Assembly: GCA_963783575.1 (NCBI GenBank)
Contig: CAWAOD010000005.1
Coordinates: 416,001 to 480,000, forward strand
Direction: 5' to 3'
Source of the DNA: an uncultured Spirochaetota bacterium
Lineage (GTDB): Bacteria > Spirochaetota > Brevinematia > Brevinematales > JAOACQ01
DNA: 64,000 bases
Under the pieces are notes generated by a model. The model had not been told where the DNA came from. It was given only the letters and a program-made list of their open reading frames with translations, and did no database searches. The translations under genes were made by a program, and so were the position numbers. Position 1 is the first letter of the stretch, and every line of letters starts with the position of its first letter. Of the stretch, positions 41,024 through 61,312 are shown in pieces.

Positions 41024-41128
41024 TATATTGTAAATCAAGTATTTTTGCCTTTTCTCATTACCTGTTAATTCCAGAAAAATCATTATTCCTGAATTTGACA
41101 TAAAATTAATATTATCTCAAAATTTAAT

Positions 41129-42193
41129 ATGTTAAATAACGATATATTCGCAAAAATATCGACTATATCCGCCGAACGCGATTTCAACGGCATCATAAAA
41201 CTGTCTATTCCGTATGATACGGCATTGATTAATAAAGTCAAATCCCTTCCTGTCAGAAAGTGGGAGCCACTGGATAAGAAATGGCTTATACCGGATACAG
41301 ACGAGAACCGCAAATCAATCTTACTTTTGTTCGGCATCAATATTAAAGATAAAACCGGCTGTAAATGGACCGAACCAATCGCCCAGGAACTCAGGATAAG
41401 GAAATACAGCCAGAGAACAAGCAAAAGTTACCTGTTTTATAATCAGGATTTCATCGGATTTACAGGAAAAGTCCCGAAGGCATTCAAAATCAGGACATAA
41501 AGAATTACCTTGATTACCTGGCGGATGAAAAGAACTCTTCAGCATCCACAATTAATTGCGCAATCAATGCTCTCCGGTTCTTTTACGGCGAAATCAGGCA
41601 TCAAAATTTTATTTATGAAATAAAACGGGCGAAAAAAGAGAAAAAATTACCTGTTGCTCTAAACCGGAATGAGATAAAAAAACTAATTTGTTCATATCAG
41701 AACTTAAAACATAAAACCATAATCGCTCTAACATATTCCGCGGGAATGCGTGTCAGTGAAACAGCCGGTTTAAAAGTCTCTGATATAGATAAAATACGCC
41801 ATATGATCCATATCAGAGGAGCAAAAGGTAAAAAAGACCGATATACAATATTTTCAAATTCTATTTTAAATCTATATGACAGGTATTTAAATGAATATGA
41901 GCCTGTATTCTGGCTTTTCGAGGGTCTTATGCCGAGATCAAAAATAAGCATTCGTACAATAAAGGCTATTTTTGAACAGGGCTTGAAAAAAACCGGTATT
42001 CAAAAAGATGCGACAGTCCATACCTTGAGGCATAGCTTTGCGACCCATCTTCTTGAGAATGGGGTTGATATCAGGTATATCCAGGAATTATTAGGGACAT
42101 GAATCAAGTAAAACGACAGAAATTTATACCCATATATCAGAAAAAAATCTGTCAAATATAAAAAGCCCATTAGATGGAATAAATGTTTTTTAA
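41129..42193 (+). pseudogene. Integron-type tyrosine recombinase, interrupted by frameshifts at about 41468 and 42095
   Basis: Repaired frame gives YSQRTSKSY, STINCAINALRFFY, KKLPVAL, YSAGMRVSE, KGKKDR, HTLRHSFATHLLE, LGHESSKTTEIYTH, KSPLD. Confidence 0.85.
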
Positions 42194-42256
42194 TTGCGTA
42201 TATCACTCCGAAATTTGAGTAATATACGCAATGCGTATATATCGAGTTAAACGAAA
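42194..42256 (+). other. Putative attI-like primary recombination site
   Basis: Inverted repeat TTGCGTATAT...ATATACGCAA, third TGCGTATAT copy, then GTTAAACGAAA (G at 42246) starting cassette 1. Confidence 0.65.
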
Positions 42257-42302
42257 TTTTTGTGCCGGTTTGTTACTTATTGAAAAATAATGAGGAATAT
42301 CA

Positions 42303-42692
42303 ATGATTATTAATGCATCAAACAGATCAGTTCATGATAATTATATTGTTAATGCTTTAATTGATATTGAAAACTCGAATATAATTTTATCCACAAAATA
42401 CGAGAATGAAAATACAGTAATATTATTTGAAAATGTTTTGTGTCACAGTTTTGAAAATATAATCAACCAAAATATTATTTTAGATATTACTGAATATAAT
42501 ATTTCAGAATTTATTGATAGAATATCGCAACATTTATTAAATAATAAAAAATATTGTGATCCTCCAATTAATTGGGAAAATATTGATGATTTAAAAACAA
42601 AATTAACAAATTTGAAATATTTTGGATATGATATTTATAGTTCAATTGGTTTGAACGGTTGGGTTATTTCAAAACAAATGATTATAAAATAA
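42303..42692 (+). CDS. Cassette 1: hypothetical protein
   Basis: AT-rich ORF with RBS between cassette-end inverted repeats. Confidence 0.75.
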   Translation: MIINASNRSVHDNYIVNALIDIENSNIILSTKYENENTVILFENVLCHSFENIINQNIILDITEYNISEFIDRISQHLLNNKKYCDPPINWENIDDLKTKLTNLKYFGYDIYSSIGLNGWVISKQMIIK

Positions 42693-42729
42693 GAAGTTAG
42701 ATGCTTATACAGGCACAAAAACTTCGTTT

Positions 42730-42974
42730 AACAGCGGCTATATCGCTCCGGTGCTCGAAAAAACTTTTCAGGGCGTAACGGAGGAGAAAGAGAAAAGTTT
42801 TTCCTGCGCTCCTCGGGTTCGCCCGTTTTTGCTTTTAGTAAAAAGAGAAAGGGGTTCAAATTGACTATGATGATTATTAAAATAAAGGTTATTATTTACG
42901 GGCTCACCAAACCCGCAAACTTAAGCGCGCGGGGCTGGCGCTAAGGTTTGCGGGCTTCGTATAGCCGCACCGTT
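42730..42974 (+). repeat. attC-like linker 1 (type A, 245 bp)
   Basis: AAC-AGCGGCTATA...TATAGCCGCACC-GTT. Confidence 0.85.
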
Positions 42975-43004
42975 CTACGCAATTTTGCAAAGGATGGTTC
43001 TATT

Positions 43005-43451
43005 ATGGATAATATAGAAAAAAGATATGATATTAAGAGTGAAAAAACAATTAGTGAAATTATACTTAAAAATGGATGGGCTGATAGAATTTATTGGGAT
43101 AGAAATGATTGGTATATTGAATGGTCTGTAAAAGGTAAAAATATATTAAATAGAATTCCTAATATTCTCAATCAAATTGATGAATTAAATGATTCTGATA
43201 AGAATTGTATAAACTTTATGGTTAACTATTTTGGTATTAATAAGATTAAAAAGGATTTTGATGAAATCACTTTAAATATGCAAGAAGAAATTATAAAAAT
43301 TATTCAGAAAAGACTAATTATGAAAATACCAGATAAAATACTTGATAGTATTAGAAAAAATGGTCGTTCATATATAGCATTAGAAATGATTTTAGATACA
43401 GTAAAATCAGAACCATTAAAAGAATTAAAAAAATATATAAAGTCTTTGTAA
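43005..43451 (+). CDS. Cassette 2: hypothetical protein
   Basis: ATG 43005 after AAGGA; upstream extension lies in the repeat. Confidence 0.7.
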   Translation: MDNIEKRYDIKSEKTISEIILKNGWADRIYWDRNDWYIEWSVKGKNILNRIPNILNQIDELNDSDKNCINFMVNYFGINKIKKDFDEITLNMQEEIIKIIQKRLIMKIPDKILDSIRKNGRSYIALEMILDTVKSEPLKELKKYIKSL

Positions 43452-43473
43452 TACGCTTTGCAAAACTGCGCAG

Positions 43474-43717
43474 AACAACGGCTATATCGCTGCGGTGCTC
43501 GAAAAAACTTTTCAGGGCGTAACGGAGGAGAAGAGAAAAGTTTTTCTTGCGCTCCTCGGGTTCGCCCGTATTTGCTTTTTGGAAAAAGAGAAAGGAGTTC
43601 AACTTGACTATGATGATTAATAAAATAAAAGTCATTGTTTACGGGCTCACCACATTTGCAAGCCTAAGCGCGCGGGGCTGGCGCTAAGGCTTGCAAACGT
43701 CGTATAGCCACACCGTT
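43474..43717 (+). repeat. attC-like linker 2 (type A, 244 bp)
   Basis: Highly similar to linker 1. Confidence 0.85.
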
Positions 43718-43758
43718 GTACGAAATGGTGCAACAACTTATTAAATTAAGGATAATTT

Positions 43759-44310
43759 ATGCCTGAAAATCAACATTTAAAATCTGCTCGTAATGATTAC
43801 AATCCTGACCCTTTTTATTTTTTTGAAGAAAATGAGACCTTCAAAAGGTATGTTGTTTATAATCCTTTTTATGATGTCATCAAAAATATTTTTATTGATA
43901 TAATTAGTAATTACAATTCTGAAATTGAAATATTATTAAAAGATTTAAAGGATTATGATGAAACAGGAAAAAAAGATATAATTTGGGATCACTACTATAC
44001 TAAAACAACAAAAGATAAAATTCTAGAAGCATTGGATGTTCATTCAAAATACATATTTTATGATGGCTATCAACAATTATGCATTAGAGATTCAATAACT
44101 GAGGATTATTTTGCTTTCGATGATCATGGTATTTTATTTATCTATTCTGAAAATAAATTGATTGAAGATATTCTAAAAAAATATAAAATTAAGAACTCTA
44201 AAAATGAATTAATTCTTGAAAAACCGCATTGGCATATAAGACCTAAAGATGCAGATGATTTAAAAATTAGTTTCATAAAAGATCTTAAAATAGATAGGTC
44301 TAATGATTAA
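43759..44310 (+). CDS. Cassette 3: hypothetical protein (paralog of cassette 13)
   Basis: Shares FDDHGILFIY and HWHIRPKDAD with 63397-63939. Confidence 0.8.
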   Translation: MPENQHLKSARNDYNPDPFYFFEENETFKRYVVYNPFYDVIKNIFIDIISNYNSEIEILLKDLKDYDETGKKDIIWDHYYTKTTKDKILEALDVHSKYIFYDGYQQLCIRDSITEDYFAFDDHGILFIYSENKLIEDILKKYKIKNSKNELILEKPHWHIRPKDADDLKISFIKDLKIDRSND

Positions 44311-44331
44311 ATATGTTGCACCACTTCGTAC

Positions 44332-44545
44332 AACACGGCATAGCTGTTCCGCTCCGTCCTCGCGCGGCTCCGGGCGGTGCTCAGCCTTCGGCACATTTGC
44401 CTTTGTCATCTTTTTTGCATATTTTAAATTTAATAAAAAGGGTTATAAAATGAAATGCTTTAATATATTTAAAGGCTGGTTCTGGAGTTGCAAAAAAGAC
44501 GCCAATCGCTGACGCGAGCGGCAAACGTCAGCTATGCCTACCGTT
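44332..44545 (+). repeat. attC-like linker 3 (type B, 214 bp)
   Basis: AAC-ACGGCATAGCTG...CAGCTATGCCTACC-GTT; related to linker 9. Confidence 0.8.
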
Positions 44546-44596
44546 GTACGAAATGTCTTGGTGCCAAGATTTTAGTTAAAGGAGATTATTATAATT

Positions 44597-45082
44597 ATGA
44601 AAAAACAATTAAAAAAAGAACCTACTAATATTGAGTTTATTTATAGTGTTATAAATAATATTCGAGGATCGAAATTAAATTATTCTTGGCGTGATTCTGG
44701 TACTATCTTCTTCGAAATTGGAACTATCATTAAAAAAGATAATCGTAATCATCCAGAAGGAAAATTTTCTTTTATGATTGATTATCCATGGCGTTTTGAA
44801 AAAAGCAATGCTATTATCTGTTCTTCAGAATTTAGTACTACAGAAAGAGACAATTTTCTCCAAAACATAATTGGGAAATCAATATTAAATATTGATTTTG
44901 TTACATGTTGTAATGATTTAATTATTGAATTTAATGATTTAGTATTCCGGCAATTTTCAATTGAATCTGATTTACACTCTTGGTCATTACGTATCAGGAA
45001 TGAAAATAACGAATATTTAAAAAATGATGTAGATCATTTTTGGTTATCTTTTGAAGAAAAAAATTTCTTGATTGAATTTTGA
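44597..45082 (+). CDS. Cassette 4: hypothetical protein
   Basis: AAGGAG RBS; ORF fills the cassette. Confidence 0.75.
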   Translation: MKKQLKKEPTNIEFIYSVINNIRGSKLNYSWRDSGTIFFEIGTIIKKDNRNHPEGKFSFMIDYPWRFEKSNAIICSSEFSTTERDNFLQNIIGKSILNIDFVTCCNDLIIEFNDLVFRQFSIESDLHSWSLRIRNENNEYLKNDVDHFWLSFEEKNFLIEF

Positions 45083-45139
45083 TAAATTAATGATTATAGA
45101 AAGAAAATAATAAAACATTGGCACCAAGCCACTTCGTAC

Positions 45140-45382
45140 AACCGCGGCTATATCGCTCCGGTGCTCGAAAAAACTTTTCCGGGCGTAACGGAGGAGAAGA
45201 GAAAAGTTTTTCCTGCGCTCCTCGGGTTCGCCCGTTTTAGATTTTGATTAAAGAGAAAGGAGTTCAACTTGACTATGATGATTATTAAAATAGAAGTCAT
45301 TATTTACAGGCTCACCACATTTTCGGGCCTAAGAGCGCGGGGCTAGCTCTAAGGCCCAAAAACGTCGTATAGCCGCACCGTT
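45140..45382 (+). repeat. attC-like linker 4 (type A, 243 bp)
   Basis: Type A copy with compensatory stem changes. Confidence 0.85.
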
Positions 45383-45462
45383 GTACGCAAGCCTGGCTGA
45401 AGCTGGTTTAAATAAAATAATTCGGCATCCTTGCCGAATAAAATAAATTAAGGGGTTTTATT

Positions 45463-46254
45463 ATGATAACAAAAATATTTTATTTTTCGACAACGGGTAA
45501 TTCATTATATGTGGCTCGCACAATAGCTGGAAAATTAGGTGAAACTGAAATTATTTCTATTCCAAAAGTTATTAAAGGACAAATTAATACAGATTCTGAA
45601 AGTGTTGGAATAATATTTCCAGTTTATGCCTGGGGACTTCCTCGAATTGTTGCCGAATTTACTGAAAAACTCAAATTAAACAAAAATCAATATGTTTTTG
45701 CAATAGCTACATGTATTGAAATGCCTGGAGCCACATTAGGACAGTTAAATAAAATTTTAAATAAAAATGGATCACATTTAAATGCTGGTTTTTTAATAAG
45801 AGAAAATTTCCGTCCAAATAGTGATAATGAAATGTCTATAGTAAAATTCATTAAAAAAGCCACAAAGATAAAGCCAATTCAATTAAAAGGGAGGCTTCAA
45901 GAAATAACAGATATTCTAAAAAATAAAAAGAAGCATAAACTGGAAATGAGTGCCAAAATGGCTCAAATTTTAGGTAATTCTTTTCATAAGGTTGCAATCA
46001 AAAAATATATGGCAGCAGATTTGAATTATAAATTGGATGAAAAATGTAATTTATGCGGTATTTGTATCAAGATATGTCCTCGTGAAAATATTAAAATGGA
46101 AAATGGAAAAATTTTATGGAATCAAAACTGTGAAGGTTGTCAAGGATGTTATCAGTGGTGTCCAAAGGAAGCGATTCATTTGACAGATGGTACAGATATA
46201 AAAGTTGGGTATCATCACCCTGAAATTGTCCTTGGAGACATTGTTTTAAGATAA
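45463..46254 (+). CDS. Cassette 5: EFR1-family flavodoxin/4Fe-4S ferredoxin protein
   Basis: YFSTTGNS, FPVYAWG, CNLCGICIKICP, CEGCQGCYQWCP. Confidence 0.88.
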   Translation: MITKIFYFSTTGNSLYVARTIAGKLGETEIISIPKVIKGQINTDSESVGIIFPVYAWGLPRIVAEFTEKLKLNKNQYVFAIATCIEMPGATLGQLNKILNKNGSHLNAGFLIRENFRPNSDNEMSIVKFIKKATKIKPIQLKGRLQEITDILKNKKKHKLEMSAKMAQILGNSFHKVAIKKYMAADLNYKLDEKCNLCGICIKICPRENIKMENGKILWNQNCEGCQGCYQWCPKEAIHLTDGTDIKVGYHHPEIVLGDIVLR

Positions 46255-46436
46255 AACTGCGGAATTTTTGTAAATTAACGCCATCCTTGGCTTGGCTTTT
46301 TGTACCGATTTTCAGCAAGGCTGGAAATGATAAACTAATTTACCAGGGTAGCAATAAATGAAATTCCCATACCTGTCACAAACAGATTTCCCATAGAGAA
46401 GCTTGAAGATTACCTTTAATGAAAATTCATTAAAGG

Positions 46437-47999
46437 ATGGCAGGAATGGTGAAAAATATTATGTATCAGGACATAAAAAAACTGAAACTTTTGGGGAAAA
46501 GTAAAAATGGTGTATCCCGGGAACTGTCAATAGATATTAAGACAGTCCGGAAATATTGGACTATGAACGATGCTGAATACCAGAAAAGCCTGATGGAATT
46601 CTCTTTCCGTGAAAAAGAATTCGAAGGAATAAAAACAGATATATTGAAAGTATATGCAAAGAATGATTACATCCGGCTGAATATGTCTGCTTTGTATGAC
46701 TATTTATTGGAGGTAAAAGGCAAACTACCGGCGAATGAAAATACGATGAGGAATTTCGTACATTACCTGATTGAAAGCGGGCAGCTTACCTTGAATGAAA
46801 AGCGACGGTATTACACAAAAGTGCCTGACATGCCATATGGAAAGCAGCTCCAGCTTGATTTCGGTCAATATACCGACAGATATGGCAGAAGGTATTACAT
46901 ATTTGCCGCGGTGTTATCCGCCAGTCGTTTTAAGTATGCGGCCCTCCAGGAGAGGCCATTCCGGACAGAAGACCTGATCAATCATCTGTTGGACTGTTTC
47001 GCATATATGGGCGGGATACCGCATGAACTTGTCATCGATCAGGACTGCACGATGGTTGCGAGTGAGAACTCAGGCGATATCATCTACACGAAAGACTTTC
47101 AGTATTTCATCGGGGAAATGGGTCTTAAAATGTATGTGTGCCGACCTGCTGACCCGGAAAGTAAGGGAAAGATTGAAAACGTAGTCAAATTCATCAAGCA
47201 CGGTTTCTTCTCAGTCCGGGAGTTCAACAGTTTAATGGAAGCGGAAGAAAGCCTGATGAAATGGCTGGAAAGAAAAGCCAACGGGAGAATATCCCAGGCT
47301 ACAATGAAAATACCACTGATAGAGATTGAAACGGAAAGACCATATCTCCAATCTGTCAGGAATTCGATATTCCGTAAAGACAGGATAGGAGCAAGGGAAG
47401 AGCGCAGTGTAAGCGATAAATGCCGGATCGCAGTTGATGCAAGCCAGTATGATATTCCCGAAAAATACAGGAACGGTTCGGTGGACATCTACAAGACGGG
47501 CAGTCGGCTTTTTGTCTTTGACAGGATAACGGGAGAGCAAATCGCCGAATACCGGCTTTCAGTGATTCCGGGGCAGATTGTAACCAACAGGGCAATGATC
47601 CGGGAAATGGGAAAGAGTGTGCAGTTATTGAAAGAAGAAGTAAGCGGGTACTTTGATATTCCCGGCTGGAAGGATTTTCTTGAATGTAATTTCAGGAAGT
47701 TCAATCGTTATGTAAGGGACCAATGTCTTTCCGGAAGAAAATACTTCAGGGACAAGATAATTGATACCGGGAAGCTTACACAAGCGATCTCAAACTGCCT
47801 GGAGAGTGATAGTTATTCCATGAAGGATTTGTGGGATAATTACCTGAACTGTTTTATAACAGAAAAGGCAGAAATACCCTTGAATGTTGAAAAGATTGTC
47901 AGGCCTTCAGTGAATCCTGAACACTATCTTGAAGTAGCTAAATCAGACATCGGGAAATACCAGAGTTTCTGTGACTCCATCGGGGGCCGGCAATGTTGA
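46437..47999 (+). CDS. istA: IS21 transposase
   Basis: HTH N-terminus, QLDFG, GGIPHELVID, PESKGKIEN. Confidence 0.92.
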   Translation: MAGMVKNIMYQDIKKLKLLGKSKNGVSRELSIDIKTVRKYWTMNDAEYQKSLMEFSFREKEFEGIKTDILKVYAKNDYIRLNMSALYDYLLEVKGKLPANENTMRNFVHYLIESGQLTLNEKRRYYTKVPDMPYGKQLQLDFGQYTDRYGRRYYIFAAVLSASRFKYAALQERPFRTEDLINHLLDCFAYMGGIPHELVIDQDCTMVASENSGDIIYTKDFQYFIGEMGLKMYVCRPADPESKGKIENVVKFIKHGFFSVREFNSLMEAEESLMKWLERKANGRISQATMKIPLIEIETERPYLQSVRNSIFRKDRIGAREERSVSDKCRIAVDASQYDIPEKYRNGSVDIYKTGSRLFVFDRITGEQIAEYRLSVIPGQIVTNRAMIREMGKSVQLLKEEVSGYFDIPGWKDFLECNFRKFNRYVRDQCLSGRKYFRDKIIDTGKLTQAISNCLESDSYSMKDLWDNYLNCFITEKAEIPLNVEKIVRPSVNPEHYLEVAKSDIGKYQSFCDSIGGRQC

Positions 48000-48742
48000 A
48001 GATAAGAGAACAAATCATAACTGCGCTTACAACTCTCGGGTTGAAGGGTATGATAAAACGGATTGATGAGGAAATTGGTGAGGCTGAAAAGGCAAAAGAG
48101 TCTTATCTGAGTTTTCTGCAGAGGCTGCTTTCTCTGGAATTGAATTATAGAGTGGAAAAACGTTTTCAGCGGAATATGGCAGGAGCACACTTCCCGGTCC
48201 GCAAAGATGTGGAAGGTTTTAATTTTGAAAAAGTGAATGGAATATCTAAAATGGATGTTTCACAGCTATTGGATTTCTGCTGGATTGATAATCATCATAA
48301 CCTGTTGTTCTTTGGGTCTCCGGGGCTGGGGAAAACGCATCTGGCAATTAGTATCGGAATCCGGGCAGTTGAAAAGGGATATATTGTCTGCTTTGAAAGG
48401 ATGACTACTCTCATTAAGTTTCTGAAAACGGCGGACATCCAGAGAAGCTCTGCTTTCAGGCTGAACCGGATGATGAAGTCACACTTATTAATCATTGATG
48501 AGATAGGTTACACACCTATCGAAAAGAAGGAGGCAAATCTATTCTTTAGTCTTGTAAGTGAATTGTATGAAAAGACATCAATTGTGATAACATCGAATAA
48601 GGGATTTCAGGATTGGGCTGAAATGATGGGAGACCCGATTATGACAACCGCTCTTCTGGATAGGCTTTTACATCATTCAAATATTTATAACTTGAGCGGA
48701 GAATCTTACAGAATACAAAATTTGAATAAGGAGGTTGAGTAA
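47993..48742 (+). CDS. istB: IS21 helper ATPase
   Basis: GSPGLGKTHLA, IIDEIGY, TALLDRLLHH, GESYR. Confidence 0.95.
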   Translation: MLKIREQIITALTTLGLKGMIKRIDEEIGEAEKAKESYLSFLQRLLSLELNYRVEKRFQRNMAGAHFPVRKDVEGFNFEKVNGISKMDVSQLLDFCWIDNHHNLLFFGSPGLGKTHLAISIGIRAVEKGYIVCFERMTTLIKFLKTADIQRSSAFRLNRMMKSHLLIIDEIGYTPIEKKEANLFFSLVSELYEKTSIVITSNKGFQDWAEMMGDPIMTTALLDRLLHHSNIYNLSGESYRIQNLNKEVE

Positions 48743-48896
48743 CCATTCTTTGCCTCCTCACTATGGGAAATACTCACGTGGAAGGTATGGGGAAAACTCT
48801 TGTGAAGCATATGGGAAATACTCTTGTGGAAGGGGTGGGAAATTACCCGAGCGCAGATATGGGAAAAACTCTTGACATTTCCAAAGGCCAGCGTAC

Positions 48897-49048
48897 AACA
48901 GCGGCTATACGCTGCGGTGCGTCCTCGCGGGGCTCCGGGCGCTCCTCGGTCCTGCGGACACATTTTGCTTTGTCACGGCTTTTGCTGCGTGGGATGCAAA
49001 AGCCGCGCCAACCCTACGGGACGCAAAACGTCGTATAGCCGCACCGTT
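48897..49048 (+). repeat. attC-like linker 5 (type C, 152 bp)
   Basis: AAC-AGCGGCTATACG...CGTATAGCCGCACC-GTT. Confidence 0.82.
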
Positions 49049-49544
49049 AAACGAAAGTACGTTCGCCAGCTTAATAATTTAATGAGGTATTATGACAAAT
49101 AAAAATTTTACAAACAATGTTTTTAATAAGTTGGTTAAAAATGAAAATACTTTAACTGAATGTTTTAGAAATTTATTAGGATATAAATCATTTTTGAAAT
49201 TATTCCTTCTATTTTTAAAAAATAAATGTGGTGATATATCTTTTTCTTCAGATGAAATTGAGACACAAAAAGACTTATCTGAATATGGAAAACCTGATAT
49301 TTATATTGAAAACAATAAAACGGTAATTATTATTGAGAATAAACTTAAGTATACTTCATTAACAAATAATCAACCCTTATCATATTTACAATACTTAATA
49401 AACAATGATAAGCAATTTAAGTATTTAATCTTTATTATATCAAAAGTCTACATCCACTTAAATGAGCTAAATAATATTATTAAAGAAACTGATTCTGTTA
49501 TACCAATAAAACTTGTGTTTTGGGAAGATTTTTTAGATCAACTA

Positions 49545-50677
49545 GTGCTTAATTGCGTAAGTTAACGATAGTATTTCTTAATTGAGAACCTTTCACTTCC
49601 CGTTTTCTCCACACAAAAGGTTTTGCGGTTTCAGTGTATGCTTTAACAAATGCATCTATTGCTTCTCTCAATTCTTCCGTGTTTTTAAAACTGGCGCCTC
49701 TAAGAGCTTTTCGGCTCATAATACCAAACCATATTTCCACCTGATTTAACCAACTTGCCGAAGTAGGCGTGTAATGAAAAAAAACATTCTTATTCCGGGA
49801 TAACCATTCATCGTTCTTTTTGTGAATACAATAATTGTCTAAAATTACATGAATTTCTTTATCTTTTGAAACATCTACCACCACTCTATCCATAAACTCA
49901 AGAAATTCAATACGTCTTTTGTATTCAGTAGTTTGGGTGTGTATTAACCCTGTAGCTACTTCCAGCGCAGCAAATAGGTTCAGCGTTCCATTTCTTTTAT
50001 ATGTACTTTTGTATCCTCTTACAATTTTTCCATTATCCGTCTCTACATAGCCGGTTGTCCTTTCCAACGCTTGAATACCAGGTTTTTCGTCTACAGATAT
50101 AACCAATGCATTCATCGGCGGATTTAAATACAACCCAATAATATTTGTGGCTTTTGTCGAAAATTCAGGATCAGTGCTGACACACCAACTTCGCTGTCGG
50201 GATAAGCAAATTCCTTCTTTTCTTAAAACCCTCCATACCGCATGCGTTGATGTGTTTAAATGTTTTGCTAAAGCCGGACCATCCCAAATTGCCTGCCCGA
50301 TAGGCGGTGTTTTTTCCAGAGTTTCTAAAACTTTGTCCCTGAAATTCTGCCCATATATTTTTGGCTTTCCTGACCTGGGCAGATCATACAATCCATCAAT
50401 TCCTTTTTGCTGAAATCTTTTTTTCCAATCAATAACCGTATTTGGTCTTATGTGAAGGTCAGCCGCAATCTCAGATACATTTTGTCCTTTCAGGCTATTG
50501 ACAATTATTTTCGCCCTCTCTACAAGTCGCGCTTCCATAGTTCGGCTTCTCACCCAACTATCAAGAATAATTTCATCCGCTTTGGTGCATGTTATAACTT
50601 GCGTTTTCTTAGACATACAACCTCCTTTTTTATGTCTAAGATTATAATTAATAACGCTTATTATTGCAATTAAGCAC
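49545..50677 (-). mobile_element. IS630-family insertion sequence
   Basis: IRs GTGCTTAATTGC / GCAATTAAGCAC, TA duplication within a CTAG target. Confidence 0.9.
49549..50616 (-). CDS. IS630 transposase
   Basis: SVDEK, ILDN, HYTPTSASWLNQVEIWF. Confidence 0.93.
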   Translation of the reverse strand: MSKKTQVITCTKADEIILDSWVRSRTMEARLVERAKIIVNSLKGQNVSEIAADLHIRPNTVIDWKKRFQQKGIDGLYDLPRSGKPKIYGQNFRDKVLETLEKTPPIGQAIWDGPALAKHLNTSTHAVWRVLRKEGICLSRQRSWCVSTDPEFSTKATNIIGLYLNPPMNALVISVDEKPGIQALERTTGYVETDNGKIVRGYKSTYKRNGTLNLFAALEVATGLIHTQTTEYKRRIEFLEFMDRVVVDVSKDKEIHVILDNYCIHKKNDEWLSRNKNVFFHYTPTSASWLNQVEIWFGIMSRKALRGASFKNTEELREAIDAFVKAYTETAKPFVWRKREVKGSQLRNTIVNLRN

Positions 50678-51201
50678 TAGATCAAAGTGGCCTTTGTGAA
50701 ATAAATCCAATTATTTTTGATTTTAGATTAATTATGAAAAAGTGGTTTTATGTTTGTGAAATTGTATTTTCAATGGAGGATATTGAAATGATTGATAATA
50801 GACAAATTCCAGAGTTAATTATAAAAATCTATTCTGTAATTAATGATGTAAAAAATAATTTAGAAAATTATAATACATCAAATTTGGAAGAAAGGCCACC
50901 CGATGCAACAACAACAGGCTTTTATATTAAAGATGAAAATAAAAATATCATTTTATGGTTTGGAACTTGGTTTGATTTATGGAAAGAGAAAGGCTTTTCA
51001 CTAGCATTTGGTTTACATAAAGATACTGATAATATTATTCTGGATAAATTTAATACTTGCTTTAAAGATAAAATATTTCAATATGATGATTGGTTATTAT
51101 GTGGTATTGACAAATTAATTCTGGAAGATAAGAAACCAGTTGATAATATACTTGAACTACTAAATAACTATTTGTAAAACATGGCGAACCTACCTTCGTT
51201 T

Positions 51202-51412
51202 AACAGCGGCTATACGCTGCGGTGCGTCCTCGCTTCGGCTCCGGTCGCTCCTCGGGTTCGCCCGTTTTTGCTTTTGATAAAATAGAAAGGAGTTCAAATT
51301 GACTATGATGATAAGTAAAATAGAAGTCTTTGTTTACGGGCTCACCACATTTGCAAGCCTAAGCGCGCGGGGCTAGCTCTAAGGCCCGAAAACGTCGTAT
51401 AGCCACACCGTT
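51202..51412 (+). repeat. attC-like linker 6 (type C/A mosaic, 211 bp)
   Basis: 5' part like linker 5, remainder type A. Confidence 0.82.
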
Positions 51413-51445
51413 AAATGCAATTTTGGCCGGATTTGAGGTAAAAGA

Positions 51446-52285
51446 ATGAAAATAATAATAATTATGATTTTATTCGCATCAATTTCAGTTTTTGCTGATA
51501 CTCATTCACCTGTTATACTTTTACCAAATATTAAAATTACTTCGTCAGAATTATTTACAGAAAAGAATAAATATCCACTTTACAATCTTATCGATAAAAA
51601 TTCAAATACAACTTGGGTATTCAAAACCAGTAATATAAATCAAAGTAACATCTTTATTAATATTGAGGTAATAGATGACGATTTAATAAAATATATTAGA
51701 CTTATAAATGGATTTTCAAAATCTGAAAATCTCTATTTTGCTAACAACAGGATTATACAAATAGGATTAACAATTGATAATAATAATAAAAGTATCATTG
51801 ATTTAAAGGAAACATTAGATTTTCAAGATATTGAATTAAATAAATCAACAAAATCATTAATAATGTCTATATTAAAAGTAAATAAAGGCAGAAAATATCT
51901 GGATATTTGTATATCTGAGCTAGAATTATTAGATAGTAATAAAAACAATATATTAGATAAATATAACTATTTTATTTTCAATGAATCAGGTGAATACTCT
52001 GATATTTATATATATGATAAAAAGATAAATAAATATTTTCATTCAAATAAAGAAGGTATAACTGGTTATGGATTTTCACCAAATGGCGATAAAATATTTT
52101 TGAATTATAGTGAAATTGATGGCGTTGGTTTTGATGTCTATTATCTTAAAACAAAAGAAATAAAATCATATTTAACAAACAATAAATATGTAGAGACTAT
52201 GGATTGGATAAGTAATAATTATATAAAAATTAAGTGGTACGATTTGCGGGATATTAAAGGTATTACAAACATACTGATAAATTAA
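51446..52285 (+). CDS. Cassette 7: exported protein with discoidin/NADase-type glycan-binding-like domain
   Basis: Signal peptide; NLIDKNSNTTW, INGFSKSENLYFANNR, DICISEL. Confidence 0.6.
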   Translation: MKIIIIMILFASISVFADTHSPVILLPNIKITSSELFTEKNKYPLYNLIDKNSNTTWVFKTSNINQSNIFINIEVIDDDLIKYIRLINGFSKSENLYFANNRIIQIGLTIDNNNKSIIDLKETLDFQDIELNKSTKSLIMSILKVNKGRKYLDICISELELLDSNKNNILDKYNYFIFNESGEYSDIYIYDKKINKYFHSNKEGITGYGFSPNGDKIFLNYSEIDGVGFDVYYLKTKEIKSYLTNNKYVETMDWISNNYIKIKWYDLRDIKGITNILIN

Positions 52286-52305
52286 ACACGGCCAAAACTG
52301 CATTT

Positions 52306-52549
52306 AACAGCGGCTATATCGCTCCGGTGCTCGAAAAAACTTTTCAGGGTGTAACGGAGGAGAAGAGAAAAGTTTTTCCTGCGCTCCTCGGATTCGCCCG
52401 TATTTGTTTTTGATAAAAATAGAAAGGAGTTCAACTTGACTATGATGCTTATTAAAATAGAAGTCATTATTTACTGGCTCACCACATTTGCAAGCCTAAG
52501 CGCGCGGGGCTGGCGCTAAGGCTTGCAAACGTCGTATAGCCGCACCGTT
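52306..52549 (+). repeat. attC-like linker 7 (type A, 244 bp)
   Basis: Type A copy. Confidence 0.85.
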
Positions 52550-52592
52550 GTGCGAAAGTCGTGGCAGCTCTATATTAAAATAGGAGTTAGTT

Positions 52593-53162
52593 ATGGATCA
52601 TAATTTAGAGAAAGTATTAAAAAATGGGAAAAAACAAGAGTTTATAAAATTTACATCTTTAATGAATGTAATTGATGATAAAGGGCAATTTCCTTTAAAA
52701 TATTCAGTAGTAAATTCAAATTATGATACTTTTAAAGAATTAATTCCTTACACAAATGTAAATTTGGCAGATAATTATGGTGTAAATGCATTAATAACTA
52801 TAATAAGTAATATCAAAAATGACAAAAATCAAATTGATAAAATAAAATTACTATTACAATATGGTGCAGATGTAAATTCTAAAACTATTGCTGGAATTAC
52901 TCCTTTAATGACTGCTGTATTTATTGGGAAGATTGATATAATTAATATATTAATAAATTCAGGTGCAAATATCAATGATATAGGAAATGATGGTAAATCT
53001 GCTTTATTTCTAGCTGTCATAGCTAATAATAAAGCTATAGTAGAATGTTTATTAAAATATAATGCGAATACTAATTTGATTGATAAAGATAATAAGTCAA
53101 TATTAAATTATTCTAGAAATAAGGATATAACAAAATTATTAGTTGATGCAGGTGCTAAGTAA
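52593..53162 (+). CDS. Cassette 8: ankyrin-repeat protein
   Basis: LLLQYGADVN, GITPLMTA, GKSALFLA repeats. Confidence 0.9.
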   Translation: MDHNLEKVLKNGKKQEFIKFTSLMNVIDDKGQFPLKYSVVNSNYDTFKELIPYTNVNLADNYGVNALITIISNIKNDKNQIDKIKLLLQYGADVNSKTIAGITPLMTAVFIGKIDIINILINSGANINDIGNDGKSALFLAVIANNKAIVECLLKYNANTNLIDKDNKSILNYSRNKDITKLLVDAGAK

Positions 53163-53195
53163 GTTTGTTGGTTAAATATGCCCCGACCATCGCAC

Positions 53196-53438
53196 AACAA
53201 CGGCTATATCGCTCCGGTGCTCGAAAAAACTTTTCAGGGCGTAACGGAGGAGAAGAGAAAAGTTTTTCCTGCGCTCCTCGGGTTCGCCCGTTTTAGATTT
53301 TGATAAAATAGAAAGGAGTTCATCTTGACTATGATGATTATTAAAATAAAAGTCATTGTTTACGGGCTCACCACATTTGCAAGCCTAAGCGCGCGGGGCT
53401 GGCGCTAAGGCTTGCAAACGTCGTATAGCCGCACCGTT
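53196..53438 (+). repeat. attC-like linker 8 (type A, 243 bp)
   Basis: Type A copy. Confidence 0.85.
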
Positions 53439-53520
53439 AGCTGAAAGTTACGGGAAGGGTTTAAATGAAAAATAACCGCGGCGTCCTGCCGCGATATGAT
53501 AATTATTTTTAGGAGATTTT

Positions 53521-56079
53521 ATGTATAAATCAGAAAATTTAGATGAATTACGGAAAAATAATCCAAACTATTTATCTAAAAAACCATTTGAACATCAAAA
53601 AGATGCTTTTATTAAGTTATCAAATTTATATGATTTAATAGACTTTAAGTCTGGAATTTTAGTTTTACCAACTGGAGCAGGAAAAACTTTTACTTCAATA
53701 AATTGGATATGTCGTAATATTATAGCAAAAGATATAAAAGTTTTATGGTTAGCCCATACATCTCATTTATTAGAACAAGCATACCATGAGTTTTGTAATA
53801 ATTTCTTAGATATTCCACCGCAAAAACAAATTATTAATATAAGAGTTGTTTCAAGTAATCCAAAACACTCAAATCCAAGCGAAATAAAAAACACTGACGA
53901 TGTGTTGATAATTACTTCTCAAACAGCCATTAGTAACTATAATTCTAATGCGACAGATATTTATGGAAAAAAAATTACAACACAATTTGAAATTTTTCTT
54001 TTCAATTCCAATGATAAAGGTCTATTTGTAGTTTTGGATGAAGCTCATCATGCTCCTGCTTATGGAGTACGAAATTTATTAATAGGAGGTTCAAAATTTA
54101 AAAAAGGAATCATGCAGATTGTACCTAATTGTAATTTTCTGGGTTTGACCGCTACGCCAACTTATTCTGAACCAAATAGAAGAGGTTGGTTATGGGAAAT
54201 TTTCAAAGATGGGATAATTTATCAAGCAGATAAAACAGAACTTGAAAAACAAGGAATTCTCGCAATACCTAATTATATTGATTATAATACAGAAATTCAA
54301 TTTGATTTAGATCAAAAATCCTATCAGCAAATTGTCAGAGAACATAAAGACCTACCAGAAAATATTATTGATAATTTAGCTAAAAATGAGCAAAGAAATA
54401 ATTTTATTGCTGAAATTTTTATTAAGAATAGAAAAACATTCGGAAAAACGTTTATATTTGCAGATCGTTGGTATCAATGTGTTTATATAAAAGAAAAATT
54501 TAAAAAGGCGAGAATAAAAGCTGATGCTGTTTTTTCAAGAATAGATGCAAAACTAACAACTGTAGAAGAAAGGAACTCAAATATAAAAACTGATAATGAT
54601 GAAATCCTTAATAAATTTAAACAGAATCAATTAGAAGTTTTATTAAATGTTCAAATGTTAACTGAAGGTACAGATGTCCCTGACGTAGATACAGTGTTCA
54701 TTACAAGACAAACAACAAGTTCAATTTTATTAACACAAATGATTGGAAGAGCATTAAGAGGAACACAGGCGCAGAAAAATGGAAAGATAAAAAATACAGC
54801 TAATATAGTATATTTTATTGATAATTGGCGTCAAGTCATTAACTTTGCATCAGCAACAGAAGGCGGTCTTGCTGAAACAGAAAAAGTAAAAGGTTATTAT
54901 CCAATTGAGTATGTTTCCATTAAATTGATTGAAGAGCTTTCCAGAAGAATTGATAGCGGAACTGTTCTTGCTGATATCCCATTTATTCAGTTATTACCTT
55001 ATGGTTGGTATGAAACTGAAATAACAGTCACAAAAGATGATGAGACTCAAAATTTCAAAGAATTTGTAATAGTATTTGAATCAAATAAAGTTAAATTTGA
55101 AAAATTTATTAATGATATACAAAAATCATTACCTTCTGAATGGGAAGATGAGAATTTATCTGAAGATTATATGTCTAAGCAAATTAAACAATGGGTTTAT
55201 AAGTATTTTTCAAAAGAAGATAATTTAAAAAATACTCTGGATTATGATTTATCAATAATAGCAAGGCATATTGCTCAAAATGAAAAAAAGCCACCGAAGA
55301 TTGTTTTATTTAAAGATCGCAATACACATGATTTATACAAAATTGCCTATGAAACAGTCGAAAAACGTATGGATGAACTGTCTATCTATGATATGTTAGA
55401 ATCAACTTATAATGACTCTGAAAAATTATGGAAAGCTTTTTATAAAAGTTTTGACAGATTTCAATCTGCATTTGATTTTGAAAAGAGATGTGCTGTTTAT
55501 AAAATTAAATATGGCAATACTCCTATAATTAAAATTGCAGACCCCGATATAATAAAACCAACACGGGAACCAACAGAAGAAGAAAAAGAAAAAATATTTA
55601 AACATGATAACTATACCTGTCAATGTTGTGGAAAATATATAAACCCCAATAGTAAAAAAGAAAGGCGGCTTTTAGTAATTGATCATGTAAGTGCTTATAA
55701 ATTTAGAGGAGATAGTTCTGATACTAATCTACAAACACTTTGTGTGACTTGTAATACACATAAAAATATTAACGAGATTAATTTTAGAGTTACTTGTTCA
55801 AAATTATTGAACCCAAAAGATTTTGAGGCTTTTAATGTAGATCAAAATGAAGATTTTGGTACAGTTTTAAAACGCATAATAAATTTCTTTTATAACTGTA
55901 AAGCAGTTTTAAATATAAATTGGTCTACTGATGGAAGAAATAAATATTCAAAAATATGGGAGATAGAACTGTATCCTGAAAATAAAATTGAATGGTTGAA
56001 ACAGAATAAACAAAAATTGATGAATTTTATTCGAAATGAGTTAGAATATAAACAATTAGAAAATATTATTATTAAATAA
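53521..56079 (+). CDS. Cassette 9: SF2 (ResIII-like) helicase fused to HNH nuclease
   Basis: LPTGAGKT, DEAHH, GLTATP, QMIGRALR; CQCCG...IDHV...NLQTLCVTCN. Confidence 0.88.
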   Translation: MYKSENLDELRKNNPNYLSKKPFEHQKDAFIKLSNLYDLIDFKSGILVLPTGAGKTFTSINWICRNIIAKDIKVLWLAHTSHLLEQAYHEFCNNFLDIPPQKQIINIRVVSSNPKHSNPSEIKNTDDVLIITSQTAISNYNSNATDIYGKKITTQFEIFLFNSNDKGLFVVLDEAHHAPAYGVRNLLIGGSKFKKGIMQIVPNCNFLGLTATPTYSEPNRRGWLWEIFKDGIIYQADKTELEKQGILAIPNYIDYNTEIQFDLDQKSYQQIVREHKDLPENIIDNLAKNEQRNNFIAEIFIKNRKTFGKTFIFADRWYQCVYIKEKFKKARIKADAVFSRIDAKLTTVEERNSNIKTDNDEILNKFKQNQLEVLLNVQMLTEGTDVPDVDTVFITRQTTSSILLTQMIGRALRGTQAQKNGKIKNTANIVYFIDNWRQVINFASATEGGLAETEKVKGYYPIEYVSIKLIEELSRRIDSGTVLADIPFIQLLPYGWYETEITVTKDDETQNFKEFVIVFESNKVKFEKFINDIQKSLPSEWEDENLSEDYMSKQIKQWVYKYFSKEDNLKNTLDYDLSIIARHIAQNEKKPPKIVLFKDRNTHDLYKIAYETVEKRMDELSIYDMLESTYNDSEKLWKAFYKSFDRFQSAFDFEKRCAVYKIKYGNTPIIKIADPDIIKPTREPTEEEKEKIFKHDNYTCQCCGKYINPNSKKERRLLVIDHVSAYKFRGDSSDTNLQTLCVTCNTHKNINEINFRVTCSKLLNPKDFEAFNVDQNEDFGTVLKRIINFFYNCKAVLNINWSTDGRNKYSKIWEIELYPENKIEWLKQNKQKLMNFIRNELEYKQLENIIIK

Positions 56080-56169
56080 ATATCTAATTTATTGATTAAA
56101 TAAAGGATGATTATAAACAGCGCCATCCTTGGCTTTTCTGGTTGTGCCGACTTCCCGTAACCTTCAGCT

Positions 56170-56321
56170 AACAAGGCATAGCTGTTCCGCTCCGTCCTCG
56201 CGCGGCTCCGGGCGGTGCTCAGCCTTCGGCACATTTGCCTTTGTCATCTTTTTTGCGCGTGGGATGCAAAAAAGACGCCAATCGCTGACGCGAACGGCAA
56301 ACGTCGCCAAGCTGTACCGTT
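56170..56321 (+). repeat. attC-like linker 9 (type B, 152 bp)
   Basis: Matches linker 3 without its AT-rich loop; 3' arm differs. Confidence 0.8.
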
Positions 56322-56378
56322 ATATGCAATGCCTTAAATTTTCTTGTTTTATAAATATTAGTATAATAGGAGGTTAAA

Positions 56379-56873
56379 ATGAATCCTAATGTTAATTTGA
56401 CATTATTTTCTAAGGATAGTTATCGCTCGACCCGACAAGGGAAAATGGTGCTTAATTTTAGTGCGCTCCAAATATTTCCCTTATTGTGCCCAGTAGAAGA
56501 GTATAAATGGTTCCCAGGCTGGGAATGTATAATGGTATATTCCAAAACAGGGATTGCAGAGAAAGATGCCGTCTTTTTAACCAAAGAAAAGGACGGTTCT
56601 AATATTGTCTGGACAGTTATCACATATGATCCACCCAATTTAATTGAATTTAGTATCGTAAACGGTCTGAATTCCGTCGAGAGATTCAGTATTATTTTGA
56701 CAGAGATATCTCATAAAAGTACTGAACTTGAATGGAAAATCATGAATACATCTTATTCAAAAAATAGTATTGAACAAAACAAAAATCAAAATAATGAATC
56801 TTTTAATATTTTTTTAGAAGATAGAAAAAAGGAAATGGACTACTATCTACGGACAGGGAAAATAATTCAATAA
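56379..56873 (+). CDS. Cassette 10: SRPBCC/START-like protein
   Basis: IFPLLCPVEEYKWFPGW...WTVITYDPP pattern. Confidence 0.6.
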   Translation: MNPNVNLTLFSKDSYRSTRQGKMVLNFSALQIFPLLCPVEEYKWFPGWECIMVYSKTGIAEKDAVFLTKEKDGSNIVWTVITYDPPNLIEFSIVNGLNSVERFSIILTEISHKSTELEWKIMNTSYSKNSIEQNKNQNNESFNIFLEDRKKEMDYYLRTGKIIQ

Positions 56874-56897
56874 TTATATTAATAAGGCACTGCGCAC

Positions 56898-57050
56898 AAC
56901 AGCAAGTCAGCGGTTGCGCTCGAGTACTCGCTCCACCCAAATCGCCGGGCTGGTTGAAAGCAATTAAATATGTTAATTTTTATAAATGCTTTTTGATATA
57001 ATATTTACAGCTTAATTAAATACCGGCGACTTCGCCGACTTGCACCCGTT
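56898..57050 (+). repeat. attC-like linker 10 (type D, 153 bp)
   Basis: AAC-AGCAAGTCAGCG...CGCCGACTTGCACCC-GTT. Confidence 0.75.
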
Positions 57051-57164
57051 GTACGAAAATTTCCGGGCCGAAGCTGATGATATTACTTTTCCGGCGTCCT
57101 TGCCGGAAAAATGATTTATTATTTAAAATGTATTAGAATTTATATCGATTAGTAGAGGTTTTAA

Positions 57165-58439
57165 ATGGCATTATTATCAGAAATTGAATCTGCACTAATG
57201 CTTGGAATTACAGTTGAATTATTAAATTCATATACAAAATATTGTCCAAAATCTGGCGAAAATGTTAAATTAAAATATAAAATAGTAAAAGGTATAAAAC
57301 ATTTTGAAAAAGATGATATTCTATTTTATCATAAATATTTAAACAGTCCGTGGCCTATGCCAAAAAAAGGAGAAAGACCATATATTCCTAAAGCAATCCA
57401 AGATTTTATAAAGTTTGAATCACATTATTCCTGTTCAATTTGCGGTCATATGGATAATGGTGAAATAGCACATATTGAAGCAGTTTCAACAACACTAAAT
57501 AATAGTCCAGATAATCTTATTTATTTATGTCCAAATCATCATACAAAATATGATTATGGTTACAAACCTAATAGTAATGTTACATTAGAAGAAATTCGTG
57601 CTTCAAAACTTTTAAAAAGAAATGCTTTACAAAGAGTGATGAAATATGAGTCTAATACAGTTAAATTATTAAAAGTTACATTATTAAACATAAAATCAAT
57701 CAGTGAAAAACTAGCCTTTGAAAGTGATAAAACAATGCTAGAGATTTATAATGTTGAATTACAAAACATTGTGAAGAATTTACCAGAATATATAGATAAA
57801 GCAAATGATGACGCAAAAAAAGATATAAGTTTAGTAAATGAAAAAGAACTATTATCTAAAAATGCACCAAATTTAATAAAATATTCAAATATAATAATAA
57901 AAGATTCTTCTTTGTTCAAAACATCCGTTGACTCAATAATCAAGATTTCTAACGAAATATTTATTGATTTAGATGAATATCCCTGTCCTCATTGTGGAGG
58001 AAGCGGACTAACAGGATTACTCGGTGATATATGTGTTTATTGTAAAGGTTCTTGTGTAGTCTCAAAGCAAATGGTTAATAGTTATGACTCTAATAAAATT
58101 GATGAAGTTGAATGTCCTCATTGTGGAGGAAGCGGACTAACAGGATTACTCGGTAATATATGTATTTATTGTAAAGGTTCTCGTAGAGTATCTCATAAAA
58201 AGTTTGATCAGTATGATCCAGATAAAATCGATGAAGTTGATTGCCCTCGTTGTGGGGGAAGCGGACTAACAGGATTACTCGGTGATATATGTACTTATTG
58301 TAAAGGTTCTCGTAGAGTATCTCATAAAAAGTTTGATGAGTATGATCCCGATGAAACCAATGAAGTTGAATGTCCTCATTGTAGGGGAAGTGGTCTATCA
58401 GGATTAGTCGGTAATGTATGTAAATTATGTAAAGGTTAA
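57165..58439 (+). CDS. Cassette 11: HNH nuclease with four tandem CxxCxGxG zinc-finger repeats
   Basis: CSICG..EIAHI..NLIYLCPNHH; 129-bp repeats starting 57984, 58113, 58242, 58371. Confidence 0.8.
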   Translation: MALLSEIESALMLGITVELLNSYTKYCPKSGENVKLKYKIVKGIKHFEKDDILFYHKYLNSPWPMPKKGERPYIPKAIQDFIKFESHYSCSICGHMDNGEIAHIEAVSTTLNNSPDNLIYLCPNHHTKYDYGYKPNSNVTLEEIRASKLLKRNALQRVMKYESNTVKLLKVTLLNIKSISEKLAFESDKTMLEIYNVELQNIVKNLPEYIDKANDDAKKDISLVNEKELLSKNAPNLIKYSNIIIKDSSLFKTSVDSIIKISNEIFIDLDEYPCPHCGGSGLTGLLGDICVYCKGSCVVSKQMVNSYDSNKIDEVECPHCGGSGLTGLLGNICIYCKGSRRVSHKKFDQYDPDKIDEVDCPRCGGSGLTGLLGDICTYCKGSRRVSHKKFDEYDPDETNEVECPHCRGSGLSGLVGNVCKLCKG

Positions 58440-58566
58440 TGTGTTGTAACTAAGATAGTATATAAAGAATATATCAAGAAATATGGAACTATTGGCGATT
58501 AAAGCCTCCGCCGTCCTGGGCTCCGGCTTTTTGCTTAAACATTCGGCCCGGAAAACATCGTACAAC

Positions 58567-60360: not shown

Positions 60361-60361
60361 C

Positions 60362-60516
60362 AACAGCGCGTAGACGCTGCGCTCCTCGGCTATCGCTAAG
60401 GCGACCGGCTGCGGCCTTAGCCTGCGGTGCTCGGGCTTCGCCAAATTTGCCTTTGGCACACATTTTTGCAAAGCAAAAAGATGTGACAAAGGCAAACTTC
60501 GTCTACGCGAACCGTT
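60362..60516 (+). repeat. attC-like linker 11 (type E, 155 bp)
   Basis: AAC-AGCGCGTAGACG...CGTCTACGCGAACC-GTT. Confidence 0.78.
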
Positions 60517-60575
60517 GTACGCCATATCGTCCAGCAAAATTGAATTATACAAATAATAATACAAATAATATGTAC

Positions 60576-60604
60576 TTGACATCATAAATAAAAAATGATA
60601 TAGT
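60576..60604 (+). promoter_or_regulatory. Sigma70 promoter of the TA cassette
   Basis: TTGACA-17 bp-TATAGT, 5 nt before the toxin ATG; ATCAT...ATGAT palindrome spans the spacer. Confidence 0.7.
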
Positions 60605-60609
60605 TATTT

Positions 60610-60972
60610 ATGTGGATTATTGATAGATCTGAAGAAATAATTAAATGGATTCAAGGATTGGATGATGATGCAAAGGAATCAATATTACAGCATTTGATTA
60701 TTCTAAAAAATATTGGACCTTCTTTAGGAAGACCATATGTTGACTTAATTGATGAAAGTAAACATAAGAATATGAAAGAATTAAGGGTTCAAAATAAAAA
60801 AAGAGCTTTTAGAATATTCTTTGCCTTTGATCCTGAAAGAAAAGCAATCTTATTAATTGGTGGAGATAAAAAAGGCAATAAAAATTTCTACAAAGAAATA
60901 ATACCAAAAGCAGATAATTTATATGACATACATTTAAAAGAATTGGAGAAAAAATATGAAAGAAAAAGTTAG
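60610..60972 (+). CDS. Cassette 12: RelE/ParE (HigB-like) toxin
   Basis: GPSLGRPYVD..SKHKNMKELR..RIFFAFDPERKAILLIGGDK. Confidence 0.9.
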   Translation: MWIIDRSEEIIKWIQGLDDDAKESILQHLIILKNIGPSLGRPYVDLIDESKHKNMKELRVQNKKRAFRIFFAFDPERKAILLIGGDKKGNKNFYKEIIPKADNLYDIHLKELEKKYERKS

Positions 60973-61279: not shown

Positions 61280-61312
61280 TTCTACCGACAGCTGGACGAT
61301 ACGGCGTACAAC

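Follow-up and report, generated by a model that had tools for sequence, protein, structure and literature searches.

The recombinase gene and the cassette array

The window analysed here is a stretch of 64,000 nucleotides from the genome of an uncultured Spirochaetota bacterium. Positions 41129-42193 of its forward strand hold a tyrosine recombinase gene, which reads as three pieces with two frame changes and is followed by an attI-like site and an array of cassettes (Table 1). Pieces 1 and 3 lie in the same frame, giving 354 codons in total, in agreement with the repaired protein of about 354 aa proposed in a first-pass annotation of the DNA. The motif IKLSIPY...KKWLIP falls within the first 75 codons, KGKKDR at 41824-41841, HTLRHSF at 42019-42039 and SPLD at 42164-42175. 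The catalytic set R-K-H-R-H-Y is complete across pieces 2 and 3, with the last His and the Tyr 3' of frameshift 2. Eight promoter-like sites were found against 7.0 expected from shuffling, and the candidate upstream of the gene is weak by itself.

Table 1. Features of the recombinase locus, in window coordinates
Feature	Position	Strand	Remarks
Sigma-70-like promoter candidate	41095..41123	+	5 nt 5' of start codon; 10/12 consensus
Recombinase piece 1	41129..41467	+	HARP-related domain and first helices of SAM-like core-binding domain
Putative HARP-related N-terminal domain	41156..41344	+	about residues 10-72; predicted strand-strand-helix-strand-strand-helix
Frameshift 1	41467..41470	+	A run; basis includes homologue alignment
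Recombinase piece 2	41470..42099 (start approximate)	+	remaining SAM-like domain and catalytic domain (R, K, HxLR), without IntI insertion
Frameshift 2	42094..42096	+	G run, just 5' of catalytic His and Tyr
Recombinase piece 3	42101..42193	+	catalytic Tyr motif and SPLD tail; TIGR02249 positions 292-314, E 0.00019
Two extra arm-like motifs	42194..42231		inverted orientation, 5' of attI; may be accessory binding sites, from sequence
attI-like site	42230..42257	+	11-bp arm, 6-bp centre, 11-bp arm; GTT 42246-42248
Cassette 1	42249..42974	+	ORF 42303-42692, no family; attC-like site 42730-42974
Cassette 2	42975..43717	+	ORF about 43005-43451; site 43474-43717
Cassette 3	43718..44545	+	ORF 43759-44310; site 44332-44545
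Cassette 4	44546..45382	+	ORF 44597-45082; site 45140-45382
Cassette 5	45383..49048	+	EFR1-family ferredoxin 45463-46254, then inserted IS21; site 48897-49048
Cassette 6	49049..51412	+	PD-(D/E)XK-like ORF split by IS630; ORF 50734-51177; site 51202-51412
Cassette 7	51413..52549	+	discoidin-like glycan-binding domain protein; site 52306-52549
Cassette 8	52550..53438	+	ankyrin-repeat protein; site 53196-53438
Cassette 9	53439..56321	+	helicase-HNH protein; site 56170-56321
Cassette 10	56322..57050	+	ORF 56379-56873; site 56898-57050
Cassette 11	57051..60516	+	HNH and zinc-finger repeats; site 60362-60516
IS1182-like element in cassette 11	58567-60361		at AAC of site 60362-60516
Cassette 12	60517..63351	+	RelE-like/HTH pair; site 63108-63351
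IS1182-like element in cassette 12	61313-63107		at AAC of site 63108-63351
Cassette 13	63352..63963	+	similar to cassette 3; ends at AAC 63961
Third IS1182-like element	from 63964		starts at AAC ending cassette 13

Twenty other frame switches were counted in the assembly among 308 genome places matched by proteins of relatives, some of them in what we take, by resemblance, to be housekeeping-type genes (ArgB- and MutS-like). At this rate two errors within 1065 bp are unlikely, which favours a real pseudogene. The recombinase copy is thus, in our judgement, quite probably a real and presumably recent pseudogene rather than an assembly error. Two public DNA sequencing runs match the locus with a small share, and no RNA run is listed; contigs from public runs are identical to the window over 41283-41444 and 42811-42961, spanning neither frameshift. 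Piece 1 matched none of the longer proteins in a low-sensitivity search, and the ESM Atlas returned only matches below 0.9 to clusters without a name, from which no evidence was gained.

The attI-like site starts 37 nt 3' of the recombinase stop codon. Repeats similar to the extra arm-like motifs upstream of it occur at two related loci (L021 and L026) and others among the attI copies of the window genome. The array comprises 14 cassettes, 13 of them within the window, and continues past the window end. Pairing was measured between the 20 nt 3' of each GTT and the 20 nt 5' of the AAC closing the same cassette. The mean was 15.8 of 20 positions for own ends, 8.7 when the partner end came from another cassette and 9.0 when it came from the adjoining one. 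The own end was the best partner in 12 of 13 cassettes, and none of 100000 permutations reached the score. The two ends of each cassette pair over about 16-18 bp (18/20 in cassette 1), a pattern to be expected if cassettes recombine at G/TT in circular form.

Twelve complete cassette sites, each running from AAC to GTT, measure 152-245 nt. Their folded centre is asymmetric: the AAC side has 6 nt, the GTT side 8-9 nt. The mismatch at position 8 corresponds to a T-G pair on the bottom strand in 14/14 cassettes, and in all ten circle-form sites the bottom strand gives the more stable fold. The inner arms alone give no clear strand bias (bottom lower in 6/12, equal in 2, top lower in 4). Four different L-arm sequences were found, each pairing with its own partner, although one site does so imperfectly. 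A bulge in the L arm is present in 6/12 sites, so an extrahelical base is not conserved. The long own-end arm resembles the attI arms and is fixed in the array alongside the unequal centre and the wobble pair.

Several cassette genes look like defence genes with only partial PADLOC matches, namely the helicase-HNH gene (53521-56079), the PD-(D/E)XK gene (49092-49565), the HNH/zinc-finger repeats (57165-58439) and the RelE-like/HTH pair (60610-61279). No drug-resistance family was matched among the cassettes in Pfam or NCBIfam. Cassettes 3 (43759-44310) and 13 (63397-63939) are diverged relatives with near-identical ends, and the ends of cassette 11 (57051-58563) are the same as those of a cassette in a second array of this genome (contig C9, 384708-386221). 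The IS1182-like element scores 216 bits against a family cut-off of 270. Counting the window and the other contigs of the genome, 19/22 of its left ends are preceded by a cassette-end motif and AAC, and 9/9 right ends are followed by AAC and a site; a literature search listed no paper on an attC-targeting IS1182. IS4 (34628-35875), IS21 (about 46373-48876) and IS630 (49549-50616) elements in the window each have at least 10 near-identical copies in the genome.

The window genome has a completeness of 89.85%, and the attI motif was matched at nine places in it. Six of the nine are followed by a self-complementary first cassette, each different. Seven further attI-like copies lie at C4:26888, C4:7087, C5:114975, C9:382288, C9:129771, C13:218522 and C16:120154; five have their own self-complementary first cassette, and two lie behind C-terminal stubs of the same recombinase. 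A near match to the motif is found at C5:358976. One enzyme may have served many attI platforms in this genome, and the system looks once active and by now decayed. A genome-wide cassette scan gave 27 matches against 10 in a reversed-sequence control; its orientation was set from the position-8 mismatch, which makes its 24/24 orientation count circular, and the count was not used.

The IntI insertion and the HARP-related domain

The IntI-specific insertion is absent from the window recombinase, as judged from motif spacing and from an alignment gap. Between the arginine motif of box I and the HxLR of box II there are 92 residues, compared with 133 in 3/3 TIGR02249-positive IntIs and 95 in a XerC/D-type control. 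Among 270 collected proteins the spacing was measurable in 144 relatives and amounts to 91-95 residues in 143 of them; the sole exception has 342. The nearest intact homologue, P0001 from genome G011, shares 62% identity with piece 2. Its residues 86-251 and 276-348 align with residues 14-181 and 248-320 of VchIntIA (2a3v), and it is shorter by about 42 residues, with the gap at the insertion. Positions 175-232 of TIGR02249, which cover the insertion and the I2 helix, have no match. The first-pass annotation had reported the insertion missing on the basis of about 55 residues between KGKKDR and HTLRHSF; the count is 59, so that the exact figure falls while the short spacing and the missing insertion stand. 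Its description of an IntI-like SAM-like domain and SPLD tail was borne out as well, the SAM_4 domain and SPLD being as in IntI.

VchIntIA (2a3v) is the best PDB match both by sequence and by fold. However, the window-type enzyme is about 41 residues shorter than IntI in the catalytic domain, remains under the TIGR02249 cut-off of 265 (159.7 for piece 2, 212.2 for the intact P0001) and carries an extra HARP domain. Intact homologues pass the cut-off of the archaeal XerA model NF040815 and bear its name, 'site-specific tyrosine recombinase/integron integrase', a model without the insertion; P0001 scores 237.7 against a cut-off of 220, and piece 2 of the broken gene reaches 178.5.

The N-terminal domain is HARP-related by our assignment, which is supported mainly by a sequence profile. 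The Pfam model PF07443 matches residues 25-52 of the window copy with E 0.0027 and 17.7 bits, below its curated cut-off of 25. The same model matches 51 of 113 intact homologues at E<=0.01, and P0162, a relative with repeated domains, exceeds the cut-off with 32.1 bits. A family profile was built from 24 N-terminal domains, the window copy included. Against the PDB its sole significant match is the HARP domain of SMARCAL1 (4o66), with E 2.4e-5 and the next match at 0.15; there the domain is joined to an ATPase motor, here to a recombinase. Against 1.84 billion representatives the profile retrieved 5784 clusters at 50% identity, non-recombinases included. Among 24 long top matches that were scanned, 22 are tyrosine recombinases and two are SNF2 helicases, and both helicases carry the Pfam HARP domain over its cut-off. 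These results uphold the proposal of the first-pass annotation that the first 75 aa or so are HARP-like.

Structure comparison gave weaker matches. AlphaFold predicts the N-terminal domain as a small alpha/beta domain (pLDDT 82.7), and in the full model it precedes the core-binding domain, connected by a linker of lower confidence. Foldseek places the XPB N-terminal domain, 4o66 (rank 2, E 0.2) and MotA high among its matches, none of which reaches E<=0.001. A second fold comparison (VIA) was likewise weak, with eIF1 best at Z 5.2, UvsW and MotA at 5.0 and 4o66 at 3.7; the alignment with 4o66 covers 49 residues at an rmsd of 2.5. The structural kin of HARP, namely the T4 UvsW N-terminus, the XPB N-terminal domain and the MotA C-terminal domain, are thus represented by weak fold matches. 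The HARP domain of SMARCAL1 is a structure-specific DNA-binding domain that binds branched DNA or single/double-strand junctions. Conserved Trp residues are found in the HARP-like domain across phyla, and only one strong HARP-profile match is present in the window genome. Bacteroidota-type members carry two to four HARP-like domains in tandem (loci L038, L040, L046, L055 and L059; proteins P0121-P0270), and a tandem pair of HARP recombinases occurs in an Undinarchaeales MAG (L034:8490-11071).

Relatives, their arrays and a clade without HARP

A total of 160 related loci were counted after five near-duplicates had been dropped; 101 of them, with at least 2 kb downstream, were scored for arrays, and 59 with less were left unscored. 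The array detector was tuned on the window sites, so differently built or upstream arrays may escape it. Downstream arrays were detected at 17/28 HARP-bearing loci with at least 2 kb downstream and at none of the other 11, at 9/49 loci with short HARP-less enzymes, at 1/9 with cut or frameshifted enzymes, at the single locus whose enzyme has a long N-terminus but no HARP match, and at 0/14 loci adjoining an IS91-type transposase, a label assigned from a motif rather than a family scan. For the HARP-bearing relatives the opposite-strand control gave 1/28 and the upstream control 3/45; the second pair of these controls gave 1/49 and 1/36. The co-occurrence with GTTNNNYG arrays that the first-pass annotation had proposed as a check is therefore found. 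In many relatives an attI-like site lies 40-150 nt 3' of the recombinase stop codon.

Seven of the nine HARP-less array loci belong to the group of L044, a locus of an Ignavibacteriota MAG; the array calls at the other two, L155 and the XerA-type L066, look like detector noise. In a quick tree the L044 group is one branch with an SH-aLRT support of 98; L191, absent from the tree, shares its N-terminus with L190. Enzymes of the L044 group lack both the insertion and HARP, and an attI with hairpin arrays is present at 7/10 of their scorable loci. As many as 12 sites make up an array, and they share the asymmetric centre and the long outer arms of the window sites. About 20 residues precede the core of the L044 enzyme, whose start directly follows a promoter-like and ribosome-binding sequence. 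Its genome, for which no completeness is given, has no HARP-profile match and no IntI over the cut-off. Because the L044 protein was the one query used to fetch the HARP-less loci, these are kin and represent one lineage rather than many independent cases. The L044 branch lies among HARP-bearing rows, which suggests, from the sequences compared, that HARP was lost in it. Support for the deep branches of the quick tree is weak (82-90), and canonical IntI comes off a basal fork without resolution. By the detector, no convincing downstream array was found for CPR-type or XerA-type HARP-less relatives, the latter forming a separate branch.

A cassette of about 200 bp without a visible gene lies directly at the attI of L044 (10927-11247); three more copies are present in the L044 array, and relatives of it occur in L166 and L170. 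In G011 three near-identical gene copies of the intact type (L021, L022 and L023) follow the same restriction-modification fragment; one of them is frameshifted near its end, and a fourth, divergent member is also present.

The family is large. At E<=1e-30, 7766 of 8000 scored candidates match it, HARP-less relatives included, and at E<=1e-50 a match was found in 142/401 genomes of the phylum, IS91-type and other HARP-less relatives included. In one bacterial family (f15; genomes G050-G394 of 3.4-4.9 Mb, loci L125-L144) 66 of 75 genomes have a match, many with HARP and long arrays. A literature search on Leptospira with CALIN and attC returned nothing relevant.

Proposed recombination without the insertion

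The locus shares its layout with the IntI/attI/attC integrons, namely a tyrosine recombinase with a SAM_4 domain and SPLD tail, an attI that adjoins its gene, one-gene cassettes bounded by AAC...GTT hairpins, and a more stable bottom strand. It appears integron-like in build, yet outside IntI by the insertion and by the TIGR02249 cut-off. The sites differ as well. Classical attC is described, in the accessible part of PMC5027507, with a 7-bp R box and extrahelical bases near L''; here own-end pairing extends over 16-18 bp, the attI has a 6-bp centre, the folded centre has 6 against 8-9 nt, and no extrahelical base is conserved. Closest among the IntI integrons are the sedentary chromosomal ones with intI pointing towards the array, a layout given for typical Spirochaetota in the portion available of bioRxiv 2022.02.06.479319.

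In classical integrons the extrahelical bases are docked by the I2 helix, which also hinders the second strand exchange, and the insertion is presented as the innovation that allowed single-strand recombination (PMC7790495, accessible sections). It is held to be essential for attC recombination in the available text of PMC7790495 and PMC8138268. The latter (Smyshlyaev 2021) also finds the insertion incompletely conserved in an 'integron-like' subgroup of simple tyrosine recombinases; its accessible text mentions neither HARP nor arrays beside the insertion-less members. In the literature covered, with most subscription journals outside it, no account was found of array-heading integrases that are fused to HARP or lack the insertion.

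We consider it fairly probable that an insertion-less recombinase built the array from a double-stranded attI and folded single-stranded cassette ends, with HARP as an accessory. The intact enzyme would recombine the double-stranded attI with a folded single-stranded cassette end, reading the arms of the site more by sequence than IntI does. The bottom strand would be cut within AAC. The extra centre bases without a partner (6 vs 8-9 nt) would block the second strand exchange, because the two centres cannot pair, and the junction would be left to replication for resolution, a job that falls to the I2 helix and the extrahelical bases in classical integrons. HARP may help to hold the branched hairpin base or the stalled junction, and it would be dispensable over evolution. 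A precedent exists in the CTX phage: its folded strand is integrated by way of Xer, with no I2 involved (PMC7790495, in the part available). Going by the sequences, the locus most likely represents a second integron type, in which the asymmetric spacer would do the job of the insertion and HARP would be accessory. A broader version of this idea is put forward tentatively: a second widespread integron class, invisible to IntI searches, in which the asymmetric centre, the fixed wobble and the long own-end arm of the site take the place of I2 in limiting the reaction to one strand exchange, one to four HARP domains of the SMARCAL1 type modulate it at forks or junctions, and the enzymes are living intermediates between Xer and IntI.

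The first-pass annotation had proposed that the N-terminal domain substitutes for the insertion, and HARP could be an essential stand-in that enables the use of folded single-stranded sites in the members that bear it. The domain is kept across phyla with its conserved Trp residues, is repeated two to four times in many members and would be, like the HARP domain of SMARCAL1, a structure-specific DNA-binding domain; by the spacing of 91-95 residues in 143 of the 144 measurable proteins, no collected protein combines it with the insertion. As stated, this proposal found no support, because a clade with neither HARP nor insertion heads the same arrays (7/10 loci), in the case of L044 in a genome without a HARP match. 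The bulged base is not conserved in the sites, so that there is perhaps nothing for a substitute to dock, and the modelled HARP precedes the core-binding domain, whereas the insertion of IntI lies in the catalytic domain. An essential stand-in is therefore judged unlikely, and these comparisons make HARP a likely helper rather than a replacement for the insertion.

Less probable still is a Xer- or Cre-like enzyme that carries out both strand exchanges on double-stranded sites, in which case the hairpins would have another role. The attI geometry is dif-like, dif itself having the layout 11-6-11, and P0001 scores above the archaeal XerA cut-off. However, the cassette sites, at 152-245 nt, have two arms only once folded, and their arm sequences vary between sites while pairing is kept, with the bottom-strand wobble in 14/14. 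XerC/D-type genes are also present elsewhere in the genome. Least probable, and in our view highly doubtful, is that a canonical IntI elsewhere, lost or outside the assembly, built the arrays with the local recombinase as a bystander. Points in its favour are that the local gene is broken, that the incomplete assembly may have left out a canonical IntI, and that arrays without a nearby IntI are common by the accessible account in PMC4889954. Against this, the attI-like site follows the recombinase gene in many relatives, and no IntI over the TIGR02249 cut-off was found in the four genomes examined (the incomplete window genome, G011, G041 and G060). The sites also differ from those of canonical IntI, for which L108 is the sole control, since the detector found sites in only 1/3 canonical control loci; L108 has bulged bases and own-end pairing of 9/18.

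The favoured reading, in which an insertion-less enzyme acts on folded cassette ends, bears on how integrons are recognized. IntegronFinder calls integrases with a profile of the insertion (PMC4889954 and PMC9024848, available parts), and integron surveys pick integrases by the insertion, as described in the portions available of PMC4889954, PMC9024848, PMC8352920 and bioRxiv 2022.02.06.479319. Should insertion-less enzymes run arrays, the rule would no longer hold, and a large stock of gene-capture platforms would have gone unnoticed. Enzymes with and without HARP exist naturally with sites of one build, which opens the avoidance of the second strand exchange to direct tests.

An assignment of the window enzyme to the IS91-associated recombinases was rejected, because an attI and cassettes, not a rolling-circle transposase gene, lie directly downstream. 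The IS91-adjoining tyrosine recombinases (L045, L048, L068 and others) have an SPLD-like tail and, in the quick tree, fall among the enzymes described here. Their IS91-type neighbours would form a second link of this recombinase clade to single-stranded DNA.
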